A stretch of 44,444 nucleotides of DNA, from the IMG/VR virus record IMGVR_UViG_2531839661_000010; one strand, 5' to 3'. A program made the position numbers and the translations under genes. The stretch is from a virus (lineage: Duplodnaviria; Heunggongvirae; Uroviricota; Caudoviricetes). This document shows, piece by piece, positions 1 through 43,190 of this stretch. The notes beneath the pieces were generated by a model, which was not told the DNA's origin, made no database searches, and was given only the letters and a program-made list of their open reading frames with translations. Position 1 is the first letter of the stretch. The number at the start of each line of letters is the position of its first letter.

Positions 1-186
1 ATGGCAGAAAGGTTCGTGAAAACGATGAAGGAAGACTACATCGCGTTCATGCCGAAACCGAATGTAAGAACGGCATTGCATAATCTTGCAGTGGCGATCG
101 AACATTACAATGAAAACCATCCGCACAGTGCGTTGGGTTATCGCTCTCCGCGAGAATATCGACGTCAGCGGGTAACGTTAACTTAA
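1..186 (+). mobile_element. IS3-family (IS2-like) transposase OrfB, C-terminal fragment; gene is cut by the window start
   Basis: ORF ends ...[23 protein letters not shown], the conserved C-terminal tail of IS3-family integrase-core transposases; only the last 61 codons are present. Confidence 0.55.
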
Positions 187-227
187 GATACACCCCCTGT
201 CTGGAAATAAGGGGGCAAGAACAATGA

Positions 228-971
228 TCAGATTCCCTGGTGAGTAAGAATTTTACTTTCTGAACTCCTCTGAGAGTATTGACTTGGAGAAACACCAAAA
301 TAACGTCTAAATACATAAGTAAAGTATGAGATACTGGCATAACCACAGACCTTAGCTACTTTACTAATAGGATAACAACGAGTGCTGAGTAAATATTCAG
401 CCATTTGCATCCTCTCATCAAGTATGATCTTACTGAATGATACCCCCTCTTCTTTCAATTTCCTCTTTAGTAAACTTTCGCTGAGATATAATCTTGATGA
501 TATATCCTTAAGACGCCATGGTGCAGATAAATCCGTATGAATAATCGTTTTAACTTTAGCCCCTGTGCTTTTCAAACATCCAAACAGAAATACTCCAAAT
601 TGTTTTTCAGAAGAAAATGCAGAGAGACATGTAAAAGCAATAGACTCATCAAAAATTTCTATGTATTCAGCACAGTGATTAGCCCAACTAATTAATCCTT
701 TAATTAAACTGAAGTCAGCAAAGTTTATTTTTAAATAAGATGGATATTCCCTATAATCAGAAATATCCCTTAAGTTATTAGCTTTCAAATAGCGACTAAT
801 AAACTCAGCGCCAAAATCTGCCACTATCACTCTTTCAGGATATGTCAGGAAGAAATCTCTAGAGCTAGAGTCGACAAGTACAGATGAACCTCTCTCCAGA
901 AACACACTCTCTTTTCCGAAATAAACATCAAAGGACTCCAAAATCAATATAACTGAACATGTAGTTGCCAT
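228..971 (-). CDS. AraC/XylS-family transcriptional regulator
   Basis: C-terminal helix-turn-helix signature KVAKVCGYASISYFTYVFRRYFGVSPSQY; AT-rich gene; first ATG is at 971 (ORF-track start at 980 is a GTG). Confidence 0.7.
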   Translation of the reverse strand: MATTCSVILILESFDVYFGKESVFLERGSSVLVDSSSRDFFLTYPERVIVADFGAEFISRYLKANNLRDISDYREYPSYLKINFADFSLIKGLISWANHCAEYIEIFDESIAFTCLSAFSSEKQFGVFLFGCLKSTGAKVKTIIHTDLSAPWRLKDISSRLYLSESLLKRKLKEEGVSFSKIILDERMQMAEYLLSTRCYPISKVAKVCGYASISYFTYVFRRYFGVSPSQYSQRSSESKILTHQGI

Positions 972-1358
972 ATCATCCACCCAATTTAACTGAAACTAGG
1001 ATGAAGTATATGCATATAAAGTTCACTTTGCCAAACTTCAGTATAAAAAACCACATAAAAAATAGGGTGTGATAAAAAATACCGTAACAATAAAGCAAAG
1101 AATTATAAATTACGTTACAGTTACAAATGATACTCAAGAAACAATTCCTTAGGAAAAACTTATTTACAGCCAATAAGTAAGACACTTATATGATATCAAG
1201 TTTTCATAAAACATAACTAGGCTAAATAGCTGCGCCTAATACCGCTACACTTTTGCCAGCCCATGTTTGCCTCCGGGTATTGACCCCTTCTCTACGCAAC
1301 TTCAGTTCCCACCACCAACTTTGCGGCAGCTTTGTAGGATCAATGTCTAAAAGAATAA

Positions 1359-1372
1359 TGGTGACCGATAAG
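1359..1372. repeat. Degenerate copy of the thrW 3' core (candidate attR of the prophage)
   Basis: tggtgaccgataag matches the plus-strand 3' end of thrW at 43001-43012 (tggtgccgataa) 12 of 12 with one inserted base, same orientation. Confidence 0.3.
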
Positions 1373-1555
1373 AAAACGACTGAATAACTGCAGATTTTCG
1401 CTCAAAACCTTCCTGTCAGATCCATAGCGAATCAAGTGCTGAATGTCACAGTATCGAACAGAAAACAGTGACGATCTAACCCTTCAAGAATATTCTACGA
1501 TTGTTCTGTTTAGGAAAAGCAAGGCGGGAAGTCGGGAGATAAGTCATTGATAAAG

Positions 1556-1620
1556 TGGCGGAGAGAGGGGGATTTGAACCCCGGTAGAGTTGCCCCTACT
1601 CCGGTTTTCGAGACCGGTCC
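1556..1620 (-). pseudogene. 3' fragment (65 nt) of a tRNA-Ser(CGA) gene, serU-like; the 5' third is absent
   Basis: Reverse complement reads GGACCGGTCTCGAAAACCGGAGTAGGGGCAACTCTACCGGGGTTCAAATCCCCCTCTCTCCGCCA (anticodon stem through CCA end, as recalled for E. coli serU); upstream sequence is unrelated AT-rich DNA. Confidence 0.7.
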
Positions 1621-1700
1621 AATCATCAAACGAAACATAAAATTAATTCACATTATGAGGAAAAGTATCTTTTTTGTACTATGTAAATTCAAAGAGTTAG

Positions 1701-2570
<870 letters not shown>

Positions 2571-2630
2571 GTCTTTAAGTGATAAGCATAAACCGCAGCA
2601 CGATCTTCTTGCATACGACGTGCTACGGTT

Positions 2631-3185
2631 TCATTTATCTCCGACCGGAAACTTCTTATACAGTGTCGATATACCAACATCATAGATGATCGCCACCTTC
2701 TGGCGAGGAACGCCTGATGCAATTAATCGTCCGGCCTGCTCCCATTGTTCTGGTGTAAGTTTGGGGCGACGTCCACCAATTCGTCCTTGTGCGCGAGCTG
2801 CTTCCAGTCCAGCTTTTGTTCGTTCAACAATCAGTTCACGCTCCATTTCAGCCAGGGCACCCATCACATGAAAGAAAAAGCGCCCCATTGGGGTACTGGT
2901 ATCAATTGAATCCGTCAGACTACGAAAGTTGATGCCTCGTTCGCGCAACTCCTCCACCAGCACGACAAGATGCCGCATACTGCGCCCCAGTCGGTCCAGT
3001 TTCCAGACTACCAGCGTGTCACCTGCCGATAATGTCCTGAGCAGCTTTTTCAGTCCTGGTCTGTCGGACTTTGTACCGCTTATCTTGTCTTCAAAAATCA
3101 GCTCGCATCCTGCACAGTTCAGCGCATTACGTTGTAGATCTGTGTTCTGGTCATTTGTTGATACGCGTACATAGCCAATAAGCAT
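2631..3185 (-). CDS. Serine-recombinase DNA invertase (Gin/Pin/Hin/Cin family)
   Basis: MLIGYVRVSTNDQNTDLQRNAL...VVWKLDRLGRSMRHL...GINFRSLTDSIDTSTPMGRFFFHVMGALAEMERELIVERT is near-colinear with Gin/Pin as recalled; start placed at the MLIGYVRVST methionine (ATG 3185). Confidence 0.9.
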   Translation of the reverse strand: MLIGYVRVSTNDQNTDLQRNALNCAGCELIFEDKISGTKSDRPGLKKLLRTLSAGDTLVVWKLDRLGRSMRHLVVLVEELRERGINFRSLTDSIDTSTPMGRFFFHVMGALAEMERELIVERTKAGLEAARAQGRIGGRRPKLTPEQWEQAGRLIASGVPRQKVAIIYDVGISTLYKKFPVGDK

Positions 3186-3211
3186 GGTAGATCCCCCTGA
3201 CAAAAGCAGGA

Positions 3212-3586
3212 ATGATGCCATTTGCTCGTTATTTCTGCATTTTCATAAACGTTGGTTTGGGAGAAGCGGCGAAAAGGAATGTGGGGACTGGGGCGAATCA
3301 GATACCAGACATGTCAGCTTATTCATCAGGATCTGGCTGGCAAAAATTGCCTGATGGTTCAATTGAACAGTGGGGAAGAATTAATTTCCCGACTAACGCC
3401 GCGGCGGTATCTACAAATGTGACTTTCCCCATTCCTTTTACGCAGGAGCCAGACGTAGTGATTGTATATGACGGCGGTTTTGGTGGTGGGAATATGTGGG
3501 GCGCAACTAACTGGACGCGAACAGGATTTGTTGCGCATTGTAACTATGGATTTGAAGGTGGAGCTTTCTTTGCGAAAGGGCGTTAA
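3212..3586 (+). CDS. Alternative tail-fibre C-terminal variable segment, silent in this orientation
   Basis: Reading frame runs through the left crossover site in the same frame as the tail-fibre gene at the right site (VGLGEA vs LGLGEG); Gly-rich fibre-tip-like sequence; followed directly by a tail-fibre assembly gene. Confidence 0.55.
3240..3265. repeat. Invertase crossover site (gix/hix-like), left copy
   Basis: TTTTCATAAACGTTGGTTTGGGAGAA; 20 of 26 positions match the reverse complement of 5090-5115, including a 14-nt perfect block TTGGTTTGGGAGAA; lies just upstream of the invertase start. Confidence 0.6.
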
Positions 3587-3588
3587 TT

Positions 3589-4029
3589 ATGAAATATTTA
3601 TATATTGATAATCTGGCGTACCCTTACGCCCTACAGTCTGTTTACGCTGCAAAAGGGCAATGGCCAGAAGGAAAAGGCGTAGACATAGACGAAGCTATTT
3701 TCAGGGAATATTTCCATGACACGCCGCCCGAAGGTAAGCGCAGAATTACCGCAGGCGACGGAATGCCAGCTTGGGCAGATGTTCCTCCACCAACACGTGA
3801 AGAACAAATTGCATCAGCCGAAACTAAAAAGCAGCAATTGATTAACCAGGCCAACGAATACATCAACAGTAAACAATGGCCAGGTAAAGCATCAATTGGT
3901 CGTCTGAAAGGTGAGGAACTGGTGCAATATAATTTGTGGCTGGATTATCTGGACGCACTGGAACTGGTCGATACTTCCGGTGCGCCAGATATTGAATGGC
4001 CTACGCCTCCGGCAGTTCAGGCCAGATGA
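3589..4029 (+). CDS. Tail-fibre assembly protein, alternative copy
   Basis: C-terminus LDALELVDTSGAPDIEWPTPPA parallels the C-terminus of the convergent assembly gene (DAVTATDTSTAPDVIWPELPEA); follows the alternative fibre segment. Confidence 0.7.
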   Translation: MKYLYIDNLAYPYALQSVYAAKGQWPEGKGVDIDEAIFREYFHDTPPEGKRRITAGDGMPAWADVPPPTREEQIASAETKKQQLINQANEYINSKQWPGKASIGRLKGEELVQYNLWLDYLDALELVDTSGAPDIEWPTPPAVQAR

Positions 4030-4603
4030 CGTCCGGCGCTGTGCTGGTATCTGTTGCCGTCACCGCGTCAATGTAATCCAGCACAGCGTTAAGTCGGGTG
4101 TTTTCTGGCTGCGTCAGCTTCCGCCCAGCCTGTAATTTCAGTTGAATCAGACTGATGGAAGCCATTGCAGCATCAATCAGCGACTGGCGCTGTGCTTCTG
4201 CCGCTTCTACTGCGGCGCTATGCTGTGCCTCGGTATCCGTCACCCATTTCTCACCATCCCATTTATCGTATGGCGTTAACGGGGCGATAGTGGTTGTATT
4301 TTCAGGGTAATCACCCGGAACTGTGATTTCTTTGGTATCTCCCGTTTCGGTACTATAGACAACTTCACCGCGATGGTCTGGCACATATTCCCATGAATTT
4401 AAATCTACAGAGCGACAGATTGCATAACCAGCTTTATGTGTACCTGGTGCATCCAGACAGGAACATGCCGGGATACCGACTCCGACAGCGAGATATTCAG
4501 TTGATGTAGAAATATATTCCCGCGTTTCGCCATCATAGTTATGTACGATGATTTCCCCATCATTTAAAGCGTAACCGTCTTTTCCCAAAATAGCCTGTTC
4601 CAT
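4001..4603 (-). CDS. Tail-fibre assembly protein
   Basis: Immediately downstream of the tail-fibre gene (stop/start adjacent); conserved C-terminal motif shared with the alternative copy; 3' ends of the two genes overlap by 29 bp. Confidence 0.75.
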   Translation of the reverse strand: MEQAILGKDGYALNDGEIIVHNYDGETREYISTSTEYLAVGVGIPACSCLDAPGTHKAGYAICRSVDLNSWEYVPDHRGEVVYSTETGDTKEITVPGDYPENTTTIAPLTPYDKWDGEKWVTDTEAQHSAAVEAAEAQRQSLIDAAMASISLIQLKLQAGRKLTQPENTRLNAVLDYIDAVTATDTSTAPDVIWPELPEA

Positions 4604-5440
4604 TTATGCAGCCCTCACAATGTAGTTAAATGCAATGTTTCGCGGGCTACCATCACCGGCGCCGGAACTGACATGATTTGTTCTATCCATTCGTTTACTG
4701 TCATTTGTTGTTCCACTCCCATCCTTCCACGAATACAATAACCCGCCATCGCCAATGCTCAACTGCACCGCAAATACGGATGATGTACCTAATTCACCAA
4801 CATCTCTAGCCATGAGTGGGTTCCCTGTCCATCCATGCATTTCATGGTTATGTTCAAGGATAGATGCTGCCTGACTTGAAAGCAGCAGTCTCGCGGAATC
4901 AACACCTCGCCCATCATCCCACCCGCGAATAAACTCACCGCGCAAATCCGGTAATTTTAACTTTGGGTAAGCCTTTGCCAGTTTTGGGTACTCTTCGGCA
5001 GAAAAAGGTGCACCGTTGCATTTCAGCCAGCCTGTTGGTGGTGTGGCTGAAGGCCACGGAACAGGCACACCAACGGGTAACGCTGAGCCTTCTCCCAAAC
5101 CAAGGTTTTCGAGAGCCGTTGGTACCGTGCCGTCCGATTTGATATCACCAAACGGATTCTTGCGGCTCAGGTATTCAACAGCAAACCCCGATCTCAGCAA
5201 TTCAACAAAACCGGGCAGATCACCATTATCAAGCACATCCCGTTGCGTTTTGTCACTTACAAACTGGGCCAGAGCTGCAGCAATAAAGCTGGCCTGCCGA
5301 ATAACCTTATTGACTTGCGCACTGGATGCTTTCCCTGCTGTAAATCCGGATAAAAGCGCAGGCAACGCTTCCCATTCCTCCTGCGACATAACATTGGCAT
5401 TCCGATCAGTTGCAAACGCTTTAAAGTCATTTTTCGCCAT
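4604..5440 (-). CDS. Tail-fibre protein (constant N-terminal part plus currently joined variable C-terminal part)
   Basis: Start ATG at 5440 overlaps the upstream gene stop (ATGA); C-terminal part carries a tail-collar-like sequence; crossover site lies inside the gene at 5090-5115. Confidence 0.75.
5090..5115. repeat. Invertase crossover site (gix/hix-like), right copy, inside the tail-fibre gene
   Basis: TTCTCCCAAACCAAGGTTTTCGAGAG; imperfect 12-2-12 dyad around a central AA, resembling hix/gix sites as recalled. Confidence 0.6.
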
Positions 5441-6120
5441 CAGAGTAATACTCCCCATGCCCCTACATCAAAACCACTGATGAATTCGTTATCCATATCA
5501 AAACCAAAAAATTTTGAACCTTCCGATGGAGTTTCCACCGAAGGTGTTTCAATGCCACCCGCCCAAACCCCGGCGGCTTTTACTGTGAGATATCCCTGTT
5601 TAATTGCAGCAATTAACTCACGCGATACATCTGAAATATCAGTATCAGGAAAGAGCCAGACCGATATCGTCATGTCCTGGTTATCGACTATCTGCATTCG
5701 CAGTCCGGATCCTGCTGTCGCCGCGTCAAGAATTGCTGGAAGCGAATCATTCCGTCCGTCCCAGTTATTAATCGCAATCTTCGCTTTAAGGATGACACGA
5801 TAAGTTTCATCGCTGAGGTACATGTATCCGGAATCAGGATCGTATGGCCCCTGCCATACACCCTGATCATATCCAAGCCCGTCGGTATCCCAGCTGAAAT
5901 AGACACCTGAGATAGGCTGGCTGACAACACGGCTACGTCCGATCCACAATCCAAGAATGTCAAGTTGCACACCAACCGCAGAGTCAATATCAAATGCAGT
6001 AATCAGCCCTCTGGTGGCAGCCGCAACATCAATAAGCGGCCGGGTCATCAGATCAACATGTGCAAGAAATTTAGGTTTGGTGGCGTGGTAGTTCGTGATC
6101 AGTTCGGTGTATTTGCTCAT
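5440..6120 (-). CDS. Tail/baseplate protein (Mu gp48 / e14 YmfQ position)
   Basis: Position between baseplate J-like gene and tail-fibre gene; start/stop overlaps with both neighbours; family assignment is positional, not verified. Confidence 0.45.
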
Positions 6121-7316
6121 GACTCCACCGTTATAACGATATTTTCCGGTGTACAGGACGCAGATTCGTTGTATCTGATATCAATGTTTGATGACGACAA
6201 AGCCCCCGGGGATTTCCCAATCGTCAGTTCCTGAATATCGTAATAGCGTGCATTCCCGCCACTCACCACGCCAAGATTCGCCGGTGAGTAAATGCGACTT
6301 AAAAGGACCGAATCACCAATCATCAGACTATTGATATAGTCGGAAATAGCCTGCTGGATCTGCTGCCCTATCTGTGAGGTATAACCCGTAAAAACTTTTA
6401 ATTTAATCCGGGCATAAACAGGTACATCACTGGAACGCGAGAATTTGATTACATGGGGATTGCCGTATTTATCCGGAACCGTAACGGATGTTGTACCGTG
6501 AGTGGCTGTCCCCTGGCCTTTATTCCCTCTGATAGCCTGAGCAATATCCGTCACATCACCGCCATCCACAATTACAGCAACAGAGTGTGGCGGTAACCCG
6601 TTACCGTCCTCCGAACCAGTATCGTTTTCATAGAGTTTGTGGCGGGTTACACCGGTAACATTAGAAACAGCACCATCCAGTGCTTCAAATGGGGTTATTG
6701 ATGGCAACGCAACACTTTGCGACTGGCGGATACGTAACTCAGCATCAGTTTCTGCCGGAGAGCCAACAGTAGCCGCAGCAGGATTAGTTACCGAAACCCA
6801 GCCACGGGTTGGCGTATTAATTTCAGTGATAGTTCCAGCCAGCGCCGCCACTGCACCACTGACGGAACATGTTGCGGTCGCCATCACTGTACCATCCACG
6901 CCGACCACCACTGAAGCAGGCAAACGCCATATCACATTATTACTGTCTTTCACGCTGCCATTAATGATGGTTGTTCCGGCAGTTCCTGTAAGAAGCAAAT
7001 CAACCGTAGAGTTCGTCGCGCCTTTACGTGAAATACCATTTATTTTCACGTTACTGGTCAGTGCAGCCCCATAGCCGGTTGCCGGTGAAAAACAGTTGTA
7101 GACAGTTATCGCCATATTATTGGCATCATGAATCGCCAGCGCCATCAGAGCCACCATCTGGCCGTCTTTGCTGTCCGGTTCGAGGTAGGCATCACTGCCA
7201 TAAATCTGCTGAAAATAGCTAATCATGGTGCTGAGTATCGTCTGATAATCAGGCGCACCGATCCCCTCCGCGGTTACCTTTGCAGATAAACCGAGAGAAT
7301 CAAGGTTCAGAGCCAT
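6117..7316 (-). CDS. Baseplate J-like protein
   Basis: 399-aa protein in the baseplate J position of myovirus tail clusters; translationally coupled to neighbours. Confidence 0.5.
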   Translation of the reverse strand: MALNLDSLGLSAKVTAEGIGAPDYQTILSTMISYFQQIYGSDAYLEPDSKDGQMVALMALAIHDANNMAITVYNCFSPATGYGAALTSNVKINGISRKGATNSTVDLLLTGTAGTTIINGSVKDSNNVIWRLPASVVVGVDGTVMATATCSVSGAVAALAGTITEINTPTRGWVSVTNPAAATVGSPAETDAELRIRQSQSVALPSITPFEALDGAVSNVTGVTRHKLYENDTGSEDGNGLPPHSVAVIVDGGDVTDIAQAIRGNKGQGTATHGTTSVTVPDKYGNPHVIKFSRSSDVPVYARIKLKVFTGYTSQIGQQIQQAISDYINSLMIGDSVLLSRIYSPANLGVVSGGNARYYDIQELTIGKSPGALSSSNIDIRYNESASCTPENIVITVES

Positions 7317-8485: not shown

Positions 8486-8881
8486 TTAAACAGCTTCATC
8501 AGTCTTCATTTTTTCCCACTGAGAAAAAATAGTCTTAACCTCTAAGAGAGATTGCTGTGCCATTGCTTTATCTATTGCACAGCTAGTGAGGTCATAATCT
8601 GCTTCATTTCGAGCCAGTCTCTGTTGCTCAAGTTTGTAAGCCATGGATTTTAGGCTTAATGGATCATATGGCTCCAGTTTGTTTTCACTCTTATTTTTAA
8701 GATAAGAGATAAGACTGGAATGATGATCCTTCGTATAAGCAGGAAGACTGGTCAGATTCTCTTTTATTTCATGGTAAAGCGCATAATATGCCCGCGAAAT
8801 AGTATTACGATAACCAACTTCAGAATCCTCCGCAAAGCAACGCTCCGCTGAAGATAAAAACTCAGAGCTAGTTATAGGCAT
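8486..8881 (-). CDS. HEPN-like domain protein (putative RNase toxin/effector)
   Basis: N-terminal helix SAERCFAEDSEVGYRNTISRAYYALYHEIKENL with R-x6-H spacing, and a later RLARNEADYD motif; AT-rich; ATG with AAGGG upstream. Confidence 0.5.
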   Translation of the reverse strand: MPITSSEFLSSAERCFAEDSEVGYRNTISRAYYALYHEIKENLTSLPAYTKDHHSSLISYLKNKSENKLEPYDPLSLKSMAYKLEQQRLARNEADYDLTSCAIDKAMAQQSLLEVKTIFSQWEKMKTDEAV

Positions 8882-9638
8882 ATTTACACCCTTTCAAGCT
8901 ATTTCTTTCAACGGAAAAACGTGCAATAAGATTGCAATCATCAAGTAAATCGATTGAACAAATTTCATCTGCAAGTCGCATATTCATTGCAACCACCTGT
9001 TCAGGAGATGCATTAACTACCTCAACCAGATAAGTCCCACCAGATGCACCGTTGATGTCAGCACGATATTCAGTTGGAGGGAATTCAGCCATGACTCTAT
9101 GAACAGCAAGAGCAACTTGCATGTATTGTTCTGAAGAGCATCCTGACTTTTTGTATGCTTCATCCATATCGTGAATTACCTCCTGCAAGAAGGCTTCTGC
9201 GTCATCCCTATGTTCTTCTTGGGATAACATTTTGCAATGACGTCCAAAATATTCTACGCATTTTGATAGTTTCCCTACCAAATACGCAACGCCACCAGCC
9301 CTATAAGTAAACCACTTGGTTGGATACTTATCAGCTAAAGAATAGATGTAGTAGTCCGATTTTTCGAGTAGAGAAAAACGCTCAAGCAGCTTACAAAAAA
9401 TCCGCGCAAAGTTAACATCAGCATGTGGGAGGATAGCTTCAAGCATTTCAATCCCGACACTCACATCACCTTTAGCAATATGAGCCAAAGCTACAAGCGT
9501 GTCAGCAGGCGGAGTACGCTTAGAGCCATACTCCGAGACCACCTCTCGAAAGGTCCAAATATCAAGAGGTTGACCACTATTGATTATCTTAACCAACTGG
9601 TCAAAACGCTCTTCCGCTTTCAGTTTTGGTCTTGCCAC
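8868..9638 (-). CDS. Hypothetical alpha-helical protein, upstream partner of the HEPN-like gene
   Basis: 256-aa ORF overlapping the HEPN gene start by 14 bp; GTG start with weak ribosome-binding site, so the exact start is uncertain; no nucleotidyltransferase or Walker motifs seen. Confidence 0.45.
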   Translation of the reverse strand: MARPKLKAEERFDQLVKIINSGQPLDIWTFREVVSEYGSKRTPPADTLVALAHIAKGDVSVGIEMLEAILPHADVNFARIFCKLLERFSLLEKSDYYIYSLADKYPTKWFTYRAGGVAYLVGKLSKCVEYFGRHCKMLSQEEHRDDAEAFLQEVIHDMDEAYKKSGCSSEQYMQVALAVHRVMAEFPPTEYRADINGASGGTYLVEVVNASPEQVVAMNMRLADEICSIDLLDDCNLIARFSVERNSLKGCKYAYN

Positions 9639-41946: not shown

Positions 41947-42986
41947 AGGCTGAAGCATGGCGGGTCAGCAAACTTGGTGAAATACCTGATATGACGTTTG
42001 AGGAAGCGTGTGTCAGGTGGCTCGAAGAGAAAGCACATAAGAAATCACTGGACGATGACAAAAGCCGGATCGGATTCTGGCTTCAACATTTCGCAGGGAT
42101 GCAACTAAGAGACATCACTGAATCAAAAATTTATTCAGCGATGCAGAAAATGACAAACCGGCGTCATGAGGAAAACTGGAAACTCAGGGCAGAAGCATGC
42201 AGAAAAAAAGGGAAACCTGTTCCAGAATACACGCCAAAACCAGCGTCCGTTGCAACGAAGGCTACGCATCTTTCATTTATAAAGGCCCTGCTAAGAGCCG
42301 CAGAGCGTGAATGGAAAATGCTGGATAAGGCACCAATTATTAAAGTGCCTCAACCAAAGAATAAACGGATCCGCTGGCTGGAGCCCCATGAAGCACAAAG
42401 GCTGATTGATGAATGTCCGGAGCCATTAAAGTCTGTTGTTGAATTTGCACTGGCAACAGGCTTAAGACGCTCGAACATCATCAACCTTGAATGGCAACAA
42501 ATAGATATGCAGCGCCGGGTGGCATGGATAAACCCGGAAGAGAGTAAATCAAACCGCGCAATTGGCGTTGCGCTGAATGATACTGCATGTCGCGTATTGA
42601 AAAAACAAATCGGGAATCATCACCGTTGGGTATTTGTGTACAAGGAAAGCTGTACCAAACCAGACGGAACGAAAGCGCCAACAGTAAGGAAGATGCGGTA
42701 TGACGCAAACACAGCCTGGAAAGCGGCGCTGAGACGGGCTGGTATTGATGATTTCAGATTTCACGACTTGAGACACACCTGGGCAAGTTGGCTGGTTCAA
42801 GCCGGAGTCCCGTTGTCAGTGTTACAGGAAATGGGAGGTTGGGAGTCTATCGAAATGGTTCGTCGATATGCTCACCTTGCACCTAATCACCTTACCGAAC
42901 ACGCACGGCAAATAGACTCGATCCTGAACCCATCGGTCCCAAATTTGTCCCAGTCAAAAAATAAGGAAGGTACTAATGATGTGTAA
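41823..42986 (+). CDS. int: Tyrosine integrase (DLP12 IntD-like)
   Basis: [35 protein letters not shown]-terminus and C-terminal catalytic motifs ([15 protein letters not shown]...RRYAHL); ends 14 bp before the tRNA 3' end. Confidence 0.9.
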
Positions 42987-43000
42987 CTTATTGATTTAAA

Positions 43001-43076
43001 TGGTGCCGATAATAGGAGTCGAACCTACGACCTTCGCATTACGAATGCGCTGCTCTACCAACTGAGCTATATCGGC
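43001..43076 (-). tRNA. thrW: tRNA-Thr (anticodon CGT)
   Basis: Reverse complement GCCGATATAGCTCAGTTGGTAGAGCAGCGCATTCGTAATGCGAAGGTCGTAGGTTCGACTCCTATTATCGGCACCA folds as a 76-nt cloverleaf with CGT anticodon and CCA end. Confidence 0.9.
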
Positions 43077-43190
43077 CCTGAAAGGACATGTTCACGAACG
43101 TGAATCACGGTGGACAAGGTTAAAACTAACCGGGCGATGCGTCAATGGCCTTGTGAATCAAATGGCTACTTTTGCATCACCCGGTTTTAT

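Follow-up and report, generated by a model that had tools for sequence, protein, structure and literature searches.

A predicted Pin-type inversion switch for the receptor-binding fibre tip of a contractile-tail prophage

Introduction

Site-specific inversion by DNA invertases of the Hin/Gin/Cin/Pin family is an ordinary, textbook mechanism. The known enhancers of these enzymes contain a pair of Fis sites, spaced by about 48 bp in the 5′ part of the invertase gene and about 100 bp from the proximal crossover site. Hin flips a promoter, in contrast to the coding cassettes that flip in the locus described here. The G segment of phage Mu (S/U, S′/U′) is organized around a constant fibre region (Sc) and two tips, each with its own assembly gene, and the invertase is located beside one of the crossover sites. 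The organization is the same here; however, the G segment is about 3 kb in length and has longer fibres.

The closest described system is the P segment of e14 (stfP-tfaP / tfaE-stfE-pinE), a defective lambdoid element located at icd in E. coli K-12. PinE inverts this segment in experiments (PMC12529663; PMC4272514). The segment is also inverted in trans by PinQ, the invertase of the PinQ/StfE2 system of a defective prophage, which is 38% identical to PinE (PMC12529663). Kirigo et al. 2025 (NAR, PMC12529663) reported that e14 StfE2, as a free receptor-binding domain, blocks the adsorption of T2.

Here we describe a cassette of this type in a 44,444-nucleotide stretch of viral DNA (to be referred to as the window). 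We read it, with a probability of about 0.9, as a working Pin-type inversion switch for the receptor-binding fibre tip of a prophage. A preliminary description of this DNA had proposed an intact host-range switch of the Mu G-segment or e14 P-segment type. The full-length pin gene and the identity of the crossover sites to those of e14 support this proposal. The likeness to e14 holds at the level of sequence, and Mu Gin and the gix sites are more distant relatives.

Results

Location of the cassette in the prophage

The cassette forms the end of a complete contractile-tail (myovirus-type) prophage of about 40 kb at thrW/proA, with genes for integrase, replication, terminase, portal, head, sheath, tape measure and baseplate. 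The prophage is related to vB_EcoM-606R2 and to Salmonella phage SEN34. The proA-thrW flank is 100% E. coli, and the best match of the switch region in complete E. coli genomes is 93–97% identical. No direct repeat of 11 nt or longer was found between the thrW end (42951-43120) and the first 3.3 kb. A PD-T4-3 defence gene directly adjoins pin; in Mu, a transposable phage, com/mom are found after gin instead.

The complete prophage at thrW differs from the defective element at icd, as do the N-terminal head and the second tip of its fibre from their counterparts in e14. Judged by its sequence, the locus is a homologous e14-type cassette on a different phage, and not e14 itself.

Structure of the invertase gene

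The invertase gene is located at one end of the cassette:

2631-3185, minus strand: pin, DNA invertase, a small serine recombinase of 184 aa (Pfam Resolvase and HTH_7)

Translation starts at 3185, with the residues MLIGYVRVS that also open PinE and Gin, and the homologues do not use the upstream ATG at 3221. The protein has complete Resolvase (1.3e-51) and HTH_7 (3.9e-13) domains and is identical to K-12 PinE at 176 of 184 positions (96%), in agreement with its initial assignment as a Gin/Pin-type invertase. The identity to Mu Gin is lower (146/193, 76%), and the Gin structures 3uj3 and 4m6f align to Pin over its full length (E 1e-95). The catalytic Ser9 is located within the motif VRVSTNDQ, and R7 and D64/R65/R68 are also present.

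The Fis-contact residues K46/K47/R50 and Q150/R153/L154 of Pin are the equivalents of K47, R48, K51, Q151, R154 and L155, the Fis/enhancer-contact residues of Hin. His106 and Met114, which we take to be the positions of hyperactive mutants of Gin/Hin, are wild type in Pin, and the enzyme is therefore expected to be Fis-dependent.

Crossover sites

Two imperfect dyads flank the segment:

3240-3265, unstranded: pin-proximal crossover site (pix), imperfect dyad of 26 bp; central dinucleotide TT (3252-3253)
5090-5115, unstranded: pin-distal crossover site (pix), lying within the fibre gene; central dinucleotide AA (5102-5103)

The plus strand reads TTTTCATAAACGTTGGTTTGGGAGAA at the first site and TTCTCCCAAACCAAGGTTTTCGAGAG at the second. 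The positions of these inverted sites and their 14-nt perfect block are as first described, whereas, on recounting, the right site and the reverse-complemented left site agree at 21 of 26 positions rather than 20. The block extends to 15 nt with one flanking base (3252-3266 / 5089-5103). We estimate that about 0.005 perfect inverted repeats of 15 nt would be expected by chance in a 3.1-kb region. A repeat search ranks the site pair (20 nt, 95% complementary) as the top inverted repeat of the region. The half-sites are symmetric at 8/12 and 9/12 positions, and the central dinucleotides are the same once the inverted orientation of the sites is taken into account. The proximal site is centred 67 bp upstream of the ATG of pin.

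Both 26-mers are letter-for-letter identical to the two sites of the e14 P segment, the left one to the pinE-proximal site and the right one to the stfP-internal site. The hixL site, in the sequence that we assume for it, matches the right site at 20/26 positions. The gix sites (TTCCTGTAAACCGAGGTTTTGGATAA, from the Mu record) differ from the sites here at several positions. For the inverted repeats of the PinQ/StfE2 system, TTGGTTTGGGAGAAGG and CCTTCTCCCAAACCAA (PMC12529663), the window has 15/16 and 16/16 matches, respectively. The pin-proximal 26-mer is found exactly in 50 of 80 related contigs, and in most related loci this site starts about 80 nt upstream of pin (with its centre at about 67 nt).

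The 14-mer occurs only at the two sites in the 44-kb window (0.46 copies expected at up to 2 mismatches), and the core pattern AAACCNNGGTTT, allowing up to 2 mismatches, occurs elsewhere in the window no more often than expected by chance. These counts rule out a multi-state shufflon of the Min type. With no extra sites in the window, the system is a simple two-state switch.

Two fibre tips in frame with one fibre head

The segment and the fibre genes are arranged as follows:

3253-5102, unstranded: invertible segment, 1,850 bp from one site centre to the other (flipped block in public data, 3267-5088)
3254-3586, plus strand: alternative fibre tip (Sv′), now unjoined to the fibre head (Pfam Gp53-like_C, 3.2e-10)
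3589-4029, plus strand: assembly gene of the alternative tip, 146 aa, TfaP-like (Pfam Caudo_TAP, 4.6e-30)
4001-4603, minus strand: assembly gene of the currently expressed tip, 200 aa, TfaE-like (Pfam Caudo_TAP, 2.5e-31)
4604-5101, minus strand: currently expressed fibre tip (Sv), StfE-like, with a tail-collar domain (Pfam Collar, 1.1e-14)
5104-5440, minus strand: constant N-terminal fibre part (Sc), about 112 aa (from the ORF and its translation)

The layout is the same as that in e14, down to the 29 nt by which the two assembly genes overlap tail to tail and a leader ORF beside pin. The segment differs in length, its site centres being 1,850 bp apart as against 1,827 bp in e14. As in the Mu G, P1 C and e14 P switches, the constant N-terminus is outside the segment and two convergent, in-frame sets of tip and assembly gene are inside. 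The start of Sc and the stop of the DUF2612 baseplate gene upstream of it share an ATGA overlap.

The degree of conservation relative to K-12 varies among the parts. The 200-aa assembly protein is identical to TfaE at 174/200 positions, and the collar-type tip is identical to StfE at 93/178 (52%). The 146-aa assembly protein shares 54 of 78 residues with the C-terminal part of TfaP, and 28/31 positions match StfP in the last 30 or so residues of Sc. The gp53-like tip is only about 30% identical to the C-terminus of StfP. Most of the related loci with a gp53-like tip have an assembly gene of the 146-aa type beside it, in the same orientation.

Sc is in frame with either tip, giving a fibre of 278 aa in the present state and 223 aa after inversion. 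The in-silico inversion product is an open 223-aa protein, with ALENLGLGE of Sc joined to AAKRNVG of the alternative tip and the Gp53-like_C domain at its end. The same fusion is an annotated gene in E. coli NZ_CP148405.1. The Pfam assignments and this product thus confirm what had been proposed from the open reading frames, namely two convergent tip and assembly sets, a compatible frame across both sites, and two open alternatives. The alternative segment extends in frame to 3586, as had been given, and its frame starts at 3254, not at 3253.

Both orientations occur in nature

Opposite orientations of the segment are on public record. The public viral contig L010 is the same as positions 1-6685 of the window, except for one SNP (window 5194) and the exact reverse complement of 3267-5088, and it carries the Sc-gp53 fusion. 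Two E. coli isolates from one collection, Z1323CEC0004 and Z1323CEC0002, have identical loci of 10,650 bp except for an exact flip of 1,826 bp, which is bounded by the same 26-mers. Both crossover sites are therefore breakpoints of the observed inversions. The two orientations are found in 30 and 22 members, respectively, of a set of 80 related viral contigs. In complete E. coli genomes, the Sc-collar junction is present in 53 and the Sc-gp53 junction in at least 10. The preliminary description would have been undermined by a single orientation only; the comparison of L010 with the window and the isolate pair both give two. We take these records to establish that the segment flips in nature.

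Short-read assemblers can misjoin sequences at repeats, and such orientations could in principle be assembly artefacts, or RecA events at a chance inverted repeat. We regard this explanation as having a negligible probability. Efficient recombination by RecA needs homology longer than 15–20 nt, and the repeat shared here is only of that length, which is also far under the read length. The breakpoints fall on canonical 26-bp sites that adjoin an invertase, and the flipped pair of isolates comes from complete (closed) genomes. Moreover, mixed orientations of the homologous e14 segment have been confirmed by PCR (PMC4272514).

The acting invertase

The enzyme that flips the segment may be the one encoded beside it. 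An unlikely alternative is that the switch is intact while its own pin is silent or inactive, so that inversion depends entirely on a Pin-family invertase in trans, or has ended. Inversion of e14 by PinQ provides a documented example of such action (PMC12529663). Among the E. coli genomes that match the 3.1-kb pin/fibre region at all, the median number of matching places is two. In vB_EcoM-606R2, the nearest phage that has been sequenced, both sites are retained, but pin is truncated to about 90 N-terminal residues. In addition, a crude consensus scan of 2400-6200 found no sigma-70-like promoter upstream of pin, and promoter and terminator consensus matches in this region are no commoner than in shuffled sequences.

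On the other hand, pin is full length here and has all the key residues, and it differs from the experimentally active PinE at 8 positions, all of them non-catalytic. The inversion must be very recent, because the flipped sister sequence L010 is only one SNP away. The promoter scan itself is no more than a crude consensus match. We therefore favour a working switch, with this copy of pin probably acting in cis.

A candidate recombinational enhancer

A candidate for the Fis-binding enhancer is located inside the invertase gene:

3101-3164, unstranded: candidate enhancer, two Fis-like 15-bp cores in the 5′ end of pin

The first core, GTATCAACAAATGAC, covers nt 22–36 of pin (window 3150-3164), and the second, GTGCAGGATGCGAGC, covers nt 71–85 (window 3101-3115). 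By the G...C rule used here, they are centred on nt 29 and nt 78, at a spacing of 49 bp. About 96 bp separate the first core from the centre of the proximal crossover site; in Hin, the distance from the proximal site to the first Fis site is about 100 bp. The motif TAATG lies between the cores, as in the Hin enhancer. Mu gin and K-12 pinE carry the same pair of cores, at matching positions within the gene.

The third-codon positions in nt 27–39 of pin have at most one variant each among 31 distinct pin 5′ ends. The dip in synonymous diversity is weak, with nt 1–105 only slightly below the gene average (sliding 10-codon entropy over 57 distinct pin/gin genes). These features suggest that a Fis enhancer is likely to be present within the 5′ end of pin.

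Discussion

Proposed mechanism

The locus has the traits of the Fis-dependent invertase family, with a catalytic domain followed by a helix-turn-helix, inverted 26-bp dyads, Fis-contact residues, and both orientations. In the proposed mechanism, Pin dimers would bind the two inverted 26-bp sites, and host Fis on the enhancer in the 5′ end of pin would assemble with Pin into an invertasome on supercoiled DNA. All four strands would be cut at the central 2 bp (TT/AA) through a phosphoserine link. One pair of subunits would then rotate by 180° and the DNA would be religated, leaving the 1.85-kb segment inverted. The participation of Fis and the enhancer in these steps is predicted for this locus.

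Sc would be transcribed with the baseplate genes and would therefore read into one of the two tips. The present state would produce the fibre with the collar-domain tip and the 200-aa assembly protein. The flipped state would produce the fibre with the gp53-like tip and the 146-aa assembly protein. A population of lysogens would then release particles of two adsorption specificities, and inversion would in this way be expected to change the host range.

A possible role in defence

The alternative tip can also be read as a free ORF, starting from ATG 3212 or 3215. The ORF at 3215-3586 has its own ATG, with AGGA 4 nt upstream, and its 17-aa leader is nearly the same as the leader of e14 StfE. 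Inversion might have been selected mainly for defence of the host, with the pin-proximal tip made as a separate receptor-binding domain to keep other phages from adsorbing, a role that Kirigo et al. 2025 (PMC12529663) reported for the homologous cassette of e14. Besides the StfE-like leader, the PD-T4-3 gene beside pin is consistent with this idea. However, a complete prophage needs a fibre, which already accounts for the switch, and the gp53-like domain has only distant similarity to the StfP C-terminus that forms StfE2. The scan of 2400-6200 detected no promoter upstream of the free ORF, and conservation of the site and the pin control region may by itself account for the leader ORF. We consider selection mainly for defence to be improbable. 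It is equally doubtful that the tip beside pin is translated from 3215 as a free domain coating or blocking a surface receptor, in which case the switch would toggle superinfection defence as well as host range and would form, with the PD-T4-3 gene, a small defence corner at the end of the prophage. We retain the switch of the receptor-binding fibre tip as the main reading.

Implications

The mechanism being a familiar one, wider interest arises only through a recent study in which inversion of the homologous e14 segment is claimed to create an anti-T2 adsorption blocker. For the locus itself, assemblies may legitimately differ by a 1.8-kb inversion, and the ‘pseudogene-like’ tip beside pin is a stored alternative rather than a product of decay. 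Annotation of the fibre gene should allow for its two states. Since either tip can be presented by the prophage, typing and assembly of the locus hinge on the orientation of the segment, and the host range of the prophage would be expected to do so too.

Organization of the switch locus

The invertible segment lies between two 26-bp crossover sites in inverted orientation, at 3240-3265 and 5090-5115. These positions, proposed in the preliminary description, are borne out by a repeat search, in which the pair ranks first among the inverted repeats of the switch region.

Parts of the switch locus (coordinates in the window, strand, feature)
2631-3185, minus: pin, serine recombinase, 184 aa (Pfam Resolvase and HTH_7)
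3101-3115: candidate Fis-like 15-bp core 2, centered on pin nt 78
3150-3164: candidate Fis-like 15-bp core 1, centered on pin nt 29
3240-3265: proximal crossover site, 26 bp, central TT at 3252-3253
3254-3586, plus: stored fibre tip, promoterless (Pfam Gp53-like_C)
3589-4029, plus: assembly gene of the stored tip, 146 aa (Pfam Caudo_TAP)
4001-4603, minus: assembly gene, 200 aa, convergent with the 146-aa one (Pfam Caudo_TAP)
4604-5440, minus: fibre gene, 278 aa, expressed tip with Collar domain (Pfam Collar)
5090-5115: distal crossover site, 26 bp, within the fibre gene, central AA at 5102-5103

With the left site read on the opposite strand, the two sites agree at 21 of 26 positions, rather than the 20 counted earlier. 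The perfect block described with that count is present, as the first 14 positions of the sites (15 with one flanking base). In E. coli K-12 MG1655, the e14 P segment has exactly the same two 26-mers as its crossover sites. The 14-mer has no third copy anywhere in the 44-kb window, and a core-pattern scan found no further crossover sites there. The switch therefore has two states, and a multi-segment shufflon was rejected.

Upstream of the fibre gene are DUF2612 and Baseplate_J genes (Pfam). The fibre start at 5440 shares an ATGA overlap with the DUF2612 stop, which makes the fibre gene a member of the baseplate operon. Inversion in silico about the central dinucleotide produces an uninterrupted 223-aa fibre with the gp53-like domain at its end, confirming the proposed compatibility of reading frames; the junction reads ...ALENLGLGE followed by AAKRNVGTG...

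The cassette proteins also resemble those of e14. K-12 TfaE is identical to the 200-aa assembly protein at 174 of 200 positions, StfE to the expressed tip at 93 of 178, and StfP to the last ~30 residues of the constant part of the fibre at 28 of 31.

The invertase and its candidate enhancer

Pin is identical to K-12 PinE at 176 of 184 positions and to Mu Gin at 146 of 193, and it aligns with Gin crystal structures end to end (E 1e-95). The serine nucleophile, Ser9, is present. Fis-activated invertases are distinguished by basic residues in helix B and a Fis-contact triad (McLean et al. 2013). Both are found in Pin, as K46/K47/R50 (Hin K47/R48/K51) and Q150/R153/L154 (Hin Q151/R154/L155). His106 and Met114 are wild type, while the Gin crystal proteins have Val at 114. 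The variants behind this reading of the two positions are Hin H107Y and Gin M114V. The wild-type residues thus predict a normal, Fis-dependent enzyme.

The 5′ part of pin, where the preliminary description proposed to look for a recombinational enhancer, probably contains one for Fis, as its sequence suggests. K-12 pinE and Mu gin have counterparts of the two Fis-like cores at matching positions. Core 1 is about 96 bp from the center of the proximal site, close to the enhancer-to-site distance of ~100 bp in Hin, and TAATG lies between the cores as it does between the Fis sites of Hin. Among 31 distinct pin 5′ ends, third-codon positions in nt 27-39 have at most one variant each, whereas neighboring third positions vary freely. 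The dip in the sliding synonymous-diversity profile over this region is weak.

Evidence for inversion

The public viral contig IMGVR_UViG_2778261592_000009 (L010) matches window 1-6685 except for a single SNP, at position 5194, and one flipped block. This block, 3267-5088, is the exact reverse complement of the window (0 mismatches in 1,822 bp), with breakpoints within the 15-nt perfect repeat of both sites. The other orientation of this element is therefore on record. Moreover, the loci of Z1323CEC0004 and Z1323CEC0002, complete genomes of chicken isolates from one collection, are identical over 10,650 bp except for an exact flip of 1,826 bp, flanked by exactly the 26-mers of the window. That the recorded orientations are artefacts or RecA events is most improbable.

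The census covered 80 viral contigs whose encoded Pin is at least 89% identical: the fibre head carries the collar-type tip in 30 of them, and in 22 this tip is stored beside pin. With a 400-nt probe, the junction of the constant part (Sc) with the collar-type tip is fully covered in 53 complete E. coli genomes; at least 10 cover the Sc-gp53 junction built in silico, and many more span the Sc junction but have a diverged gp53-like tip. In NZ_CP148405.1, the 223-aa fusion predicted here is annotated as a protein. The contig, the isolate pair and the census are three independent lines of sequence evidence that the segment flips, and the concern that only one orientation might ever be seen is answered by all three. 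For the homologous e14 cassette, clonal K-12 cultures hold mixed orientations (PMC4272514), and inversion is driven by PinE and PinQ (PMC12529663).

In the two isolates (L003/L005), an IS3-family element separates pinE from the proximal site, and ISVsa5 lies between the DUF2612 and fibre genes. Either another invertase flipped their segment, or the flip took place although pin, with its candidate enhancer, is ~1.3 kb more distant from the site. In three IMG/VR contigs (L012, L043 and L046), two pin genes in inverted orientation flank the segment, one at either side, and the sites at its two ends are both pin-proximal in type; these contigs may derive from recombination between two Pin cassettes.

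The carrier prophage

The right end of the window, with proA-thrW, identifies the host as E. coli: many strains match it there at 100% identity. The prophage is complete, at ~40 kb, with the switch cassette at its end. It encodes an integrase beside tRNA-Thr, an O-like replication protein, terminase, portal, protease, major head protein, sheath, tape measure and baseplate hub. Its tail module shares 96% identity with that of Escherichia phage vB_EcoM-606R2 and is more distantly related to that of Salmonella phage SEN34. As carriers, e14 itself and a Mu-like phage were rejected in favor of this vB_EcoM-606R2-related prophage.

That phage (L002, ON470579.1), the closest one sequenced, keeps both crossover sites (1834-1847 and 3644-3657) and both cassettes. 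Its invertase ORF (1453-1803) ends after ~90 Pin-like residues and adjoins an unrelated 281-aa gene; its switch is probably frozen unless flipped in trans by another invertase. Since this truncation occurs in the nearest phage and action in trans is documented (PMC12529663), it is plausible that the cis pin is inactive here as well and flips are made in trans. The pin in the window is intact, however, and we consider this unlikely.

The stored tip can also be read as a free ORF of 123/124 aa with its own ATG (3212-3586, plus strand); an AGGA precedes its second ATG by 4 nt, and its 17-aa leader differs little from the leader of e14 StfE. A consensus scan found no promoter for it. The analogous chimera in K-12, StfE2, reportedly keeps T2 from adsorbing (PMC12529663), and defence by the free tip protein could be the main role here, as claimed for StfE2; we regard this as less probable still than flipping in trans.

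Other features of the window

Directly next to pin, at the prophage end, 1746-2570 (plus strand) encodes a LEM-3-like GIY-YIG protein (Pfam LEM-3_GIY-YIG) with a near end-to-end match to the single-gene anti-phage system PD-T4-3 (PADLOC E 2.7e-140). It appears to be defence cargo placed beside the switch. Two overlapping ORFs of 131 and 256 aa (8486-9638, minus strand) separate the spike gene from the baseplate-hub region. They are without a Pfam match, and PADLOC gives only a faint one, to HEPN_IX (E 0.009). Possibly the tail module has acquired a moron or a toxin-antitoxin-like insertion here.

The window opens inside an IS3-family transposase ORF, whose 3′ end occupies positions 1-186. Contig L010 ends at exactly the same place, which suggests an assembly break at the IS. 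Between this fragment and the prophage end, in a stretch that appears AT-rich by eye, is an AraC-family regulator (228-980, minus strand; HTH_AraC / HTH_18), which probably belongs to an older thrW island. A tRNA-like 3′ fragment at 1555-1625 (GGGGGATTTGAACCCC...), without an ARAGORN call, is possibly an old attachment-site remnant. Comparison of the thrW end with the left end of the window found no matching att repeat.

Mechanism and implications

Pin, Fis and the enhancer would build an invertasome, in which the DNA would be cut at the central dinucleotide, the subunits rotated and the ends religated. Inversion would thereby exchange the tip and the cognate assembly protein expressed from the baseplate operon. 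This standard inversion is the best explanation of the locus, with a probability of about 0.9. The Gin/Pin-type fibre switch recognized in the preliminary description is confirmed in its existence, its location and its interpretation. The inversion mechanism has been known since the 1980s, and the locus is an ordinary case of it, its sites being identical to those of a studied system. The complete prophage and its vB_EcoM-606R2/SEN34-like tail place this e14-type switch on a different, apparently viable phage.
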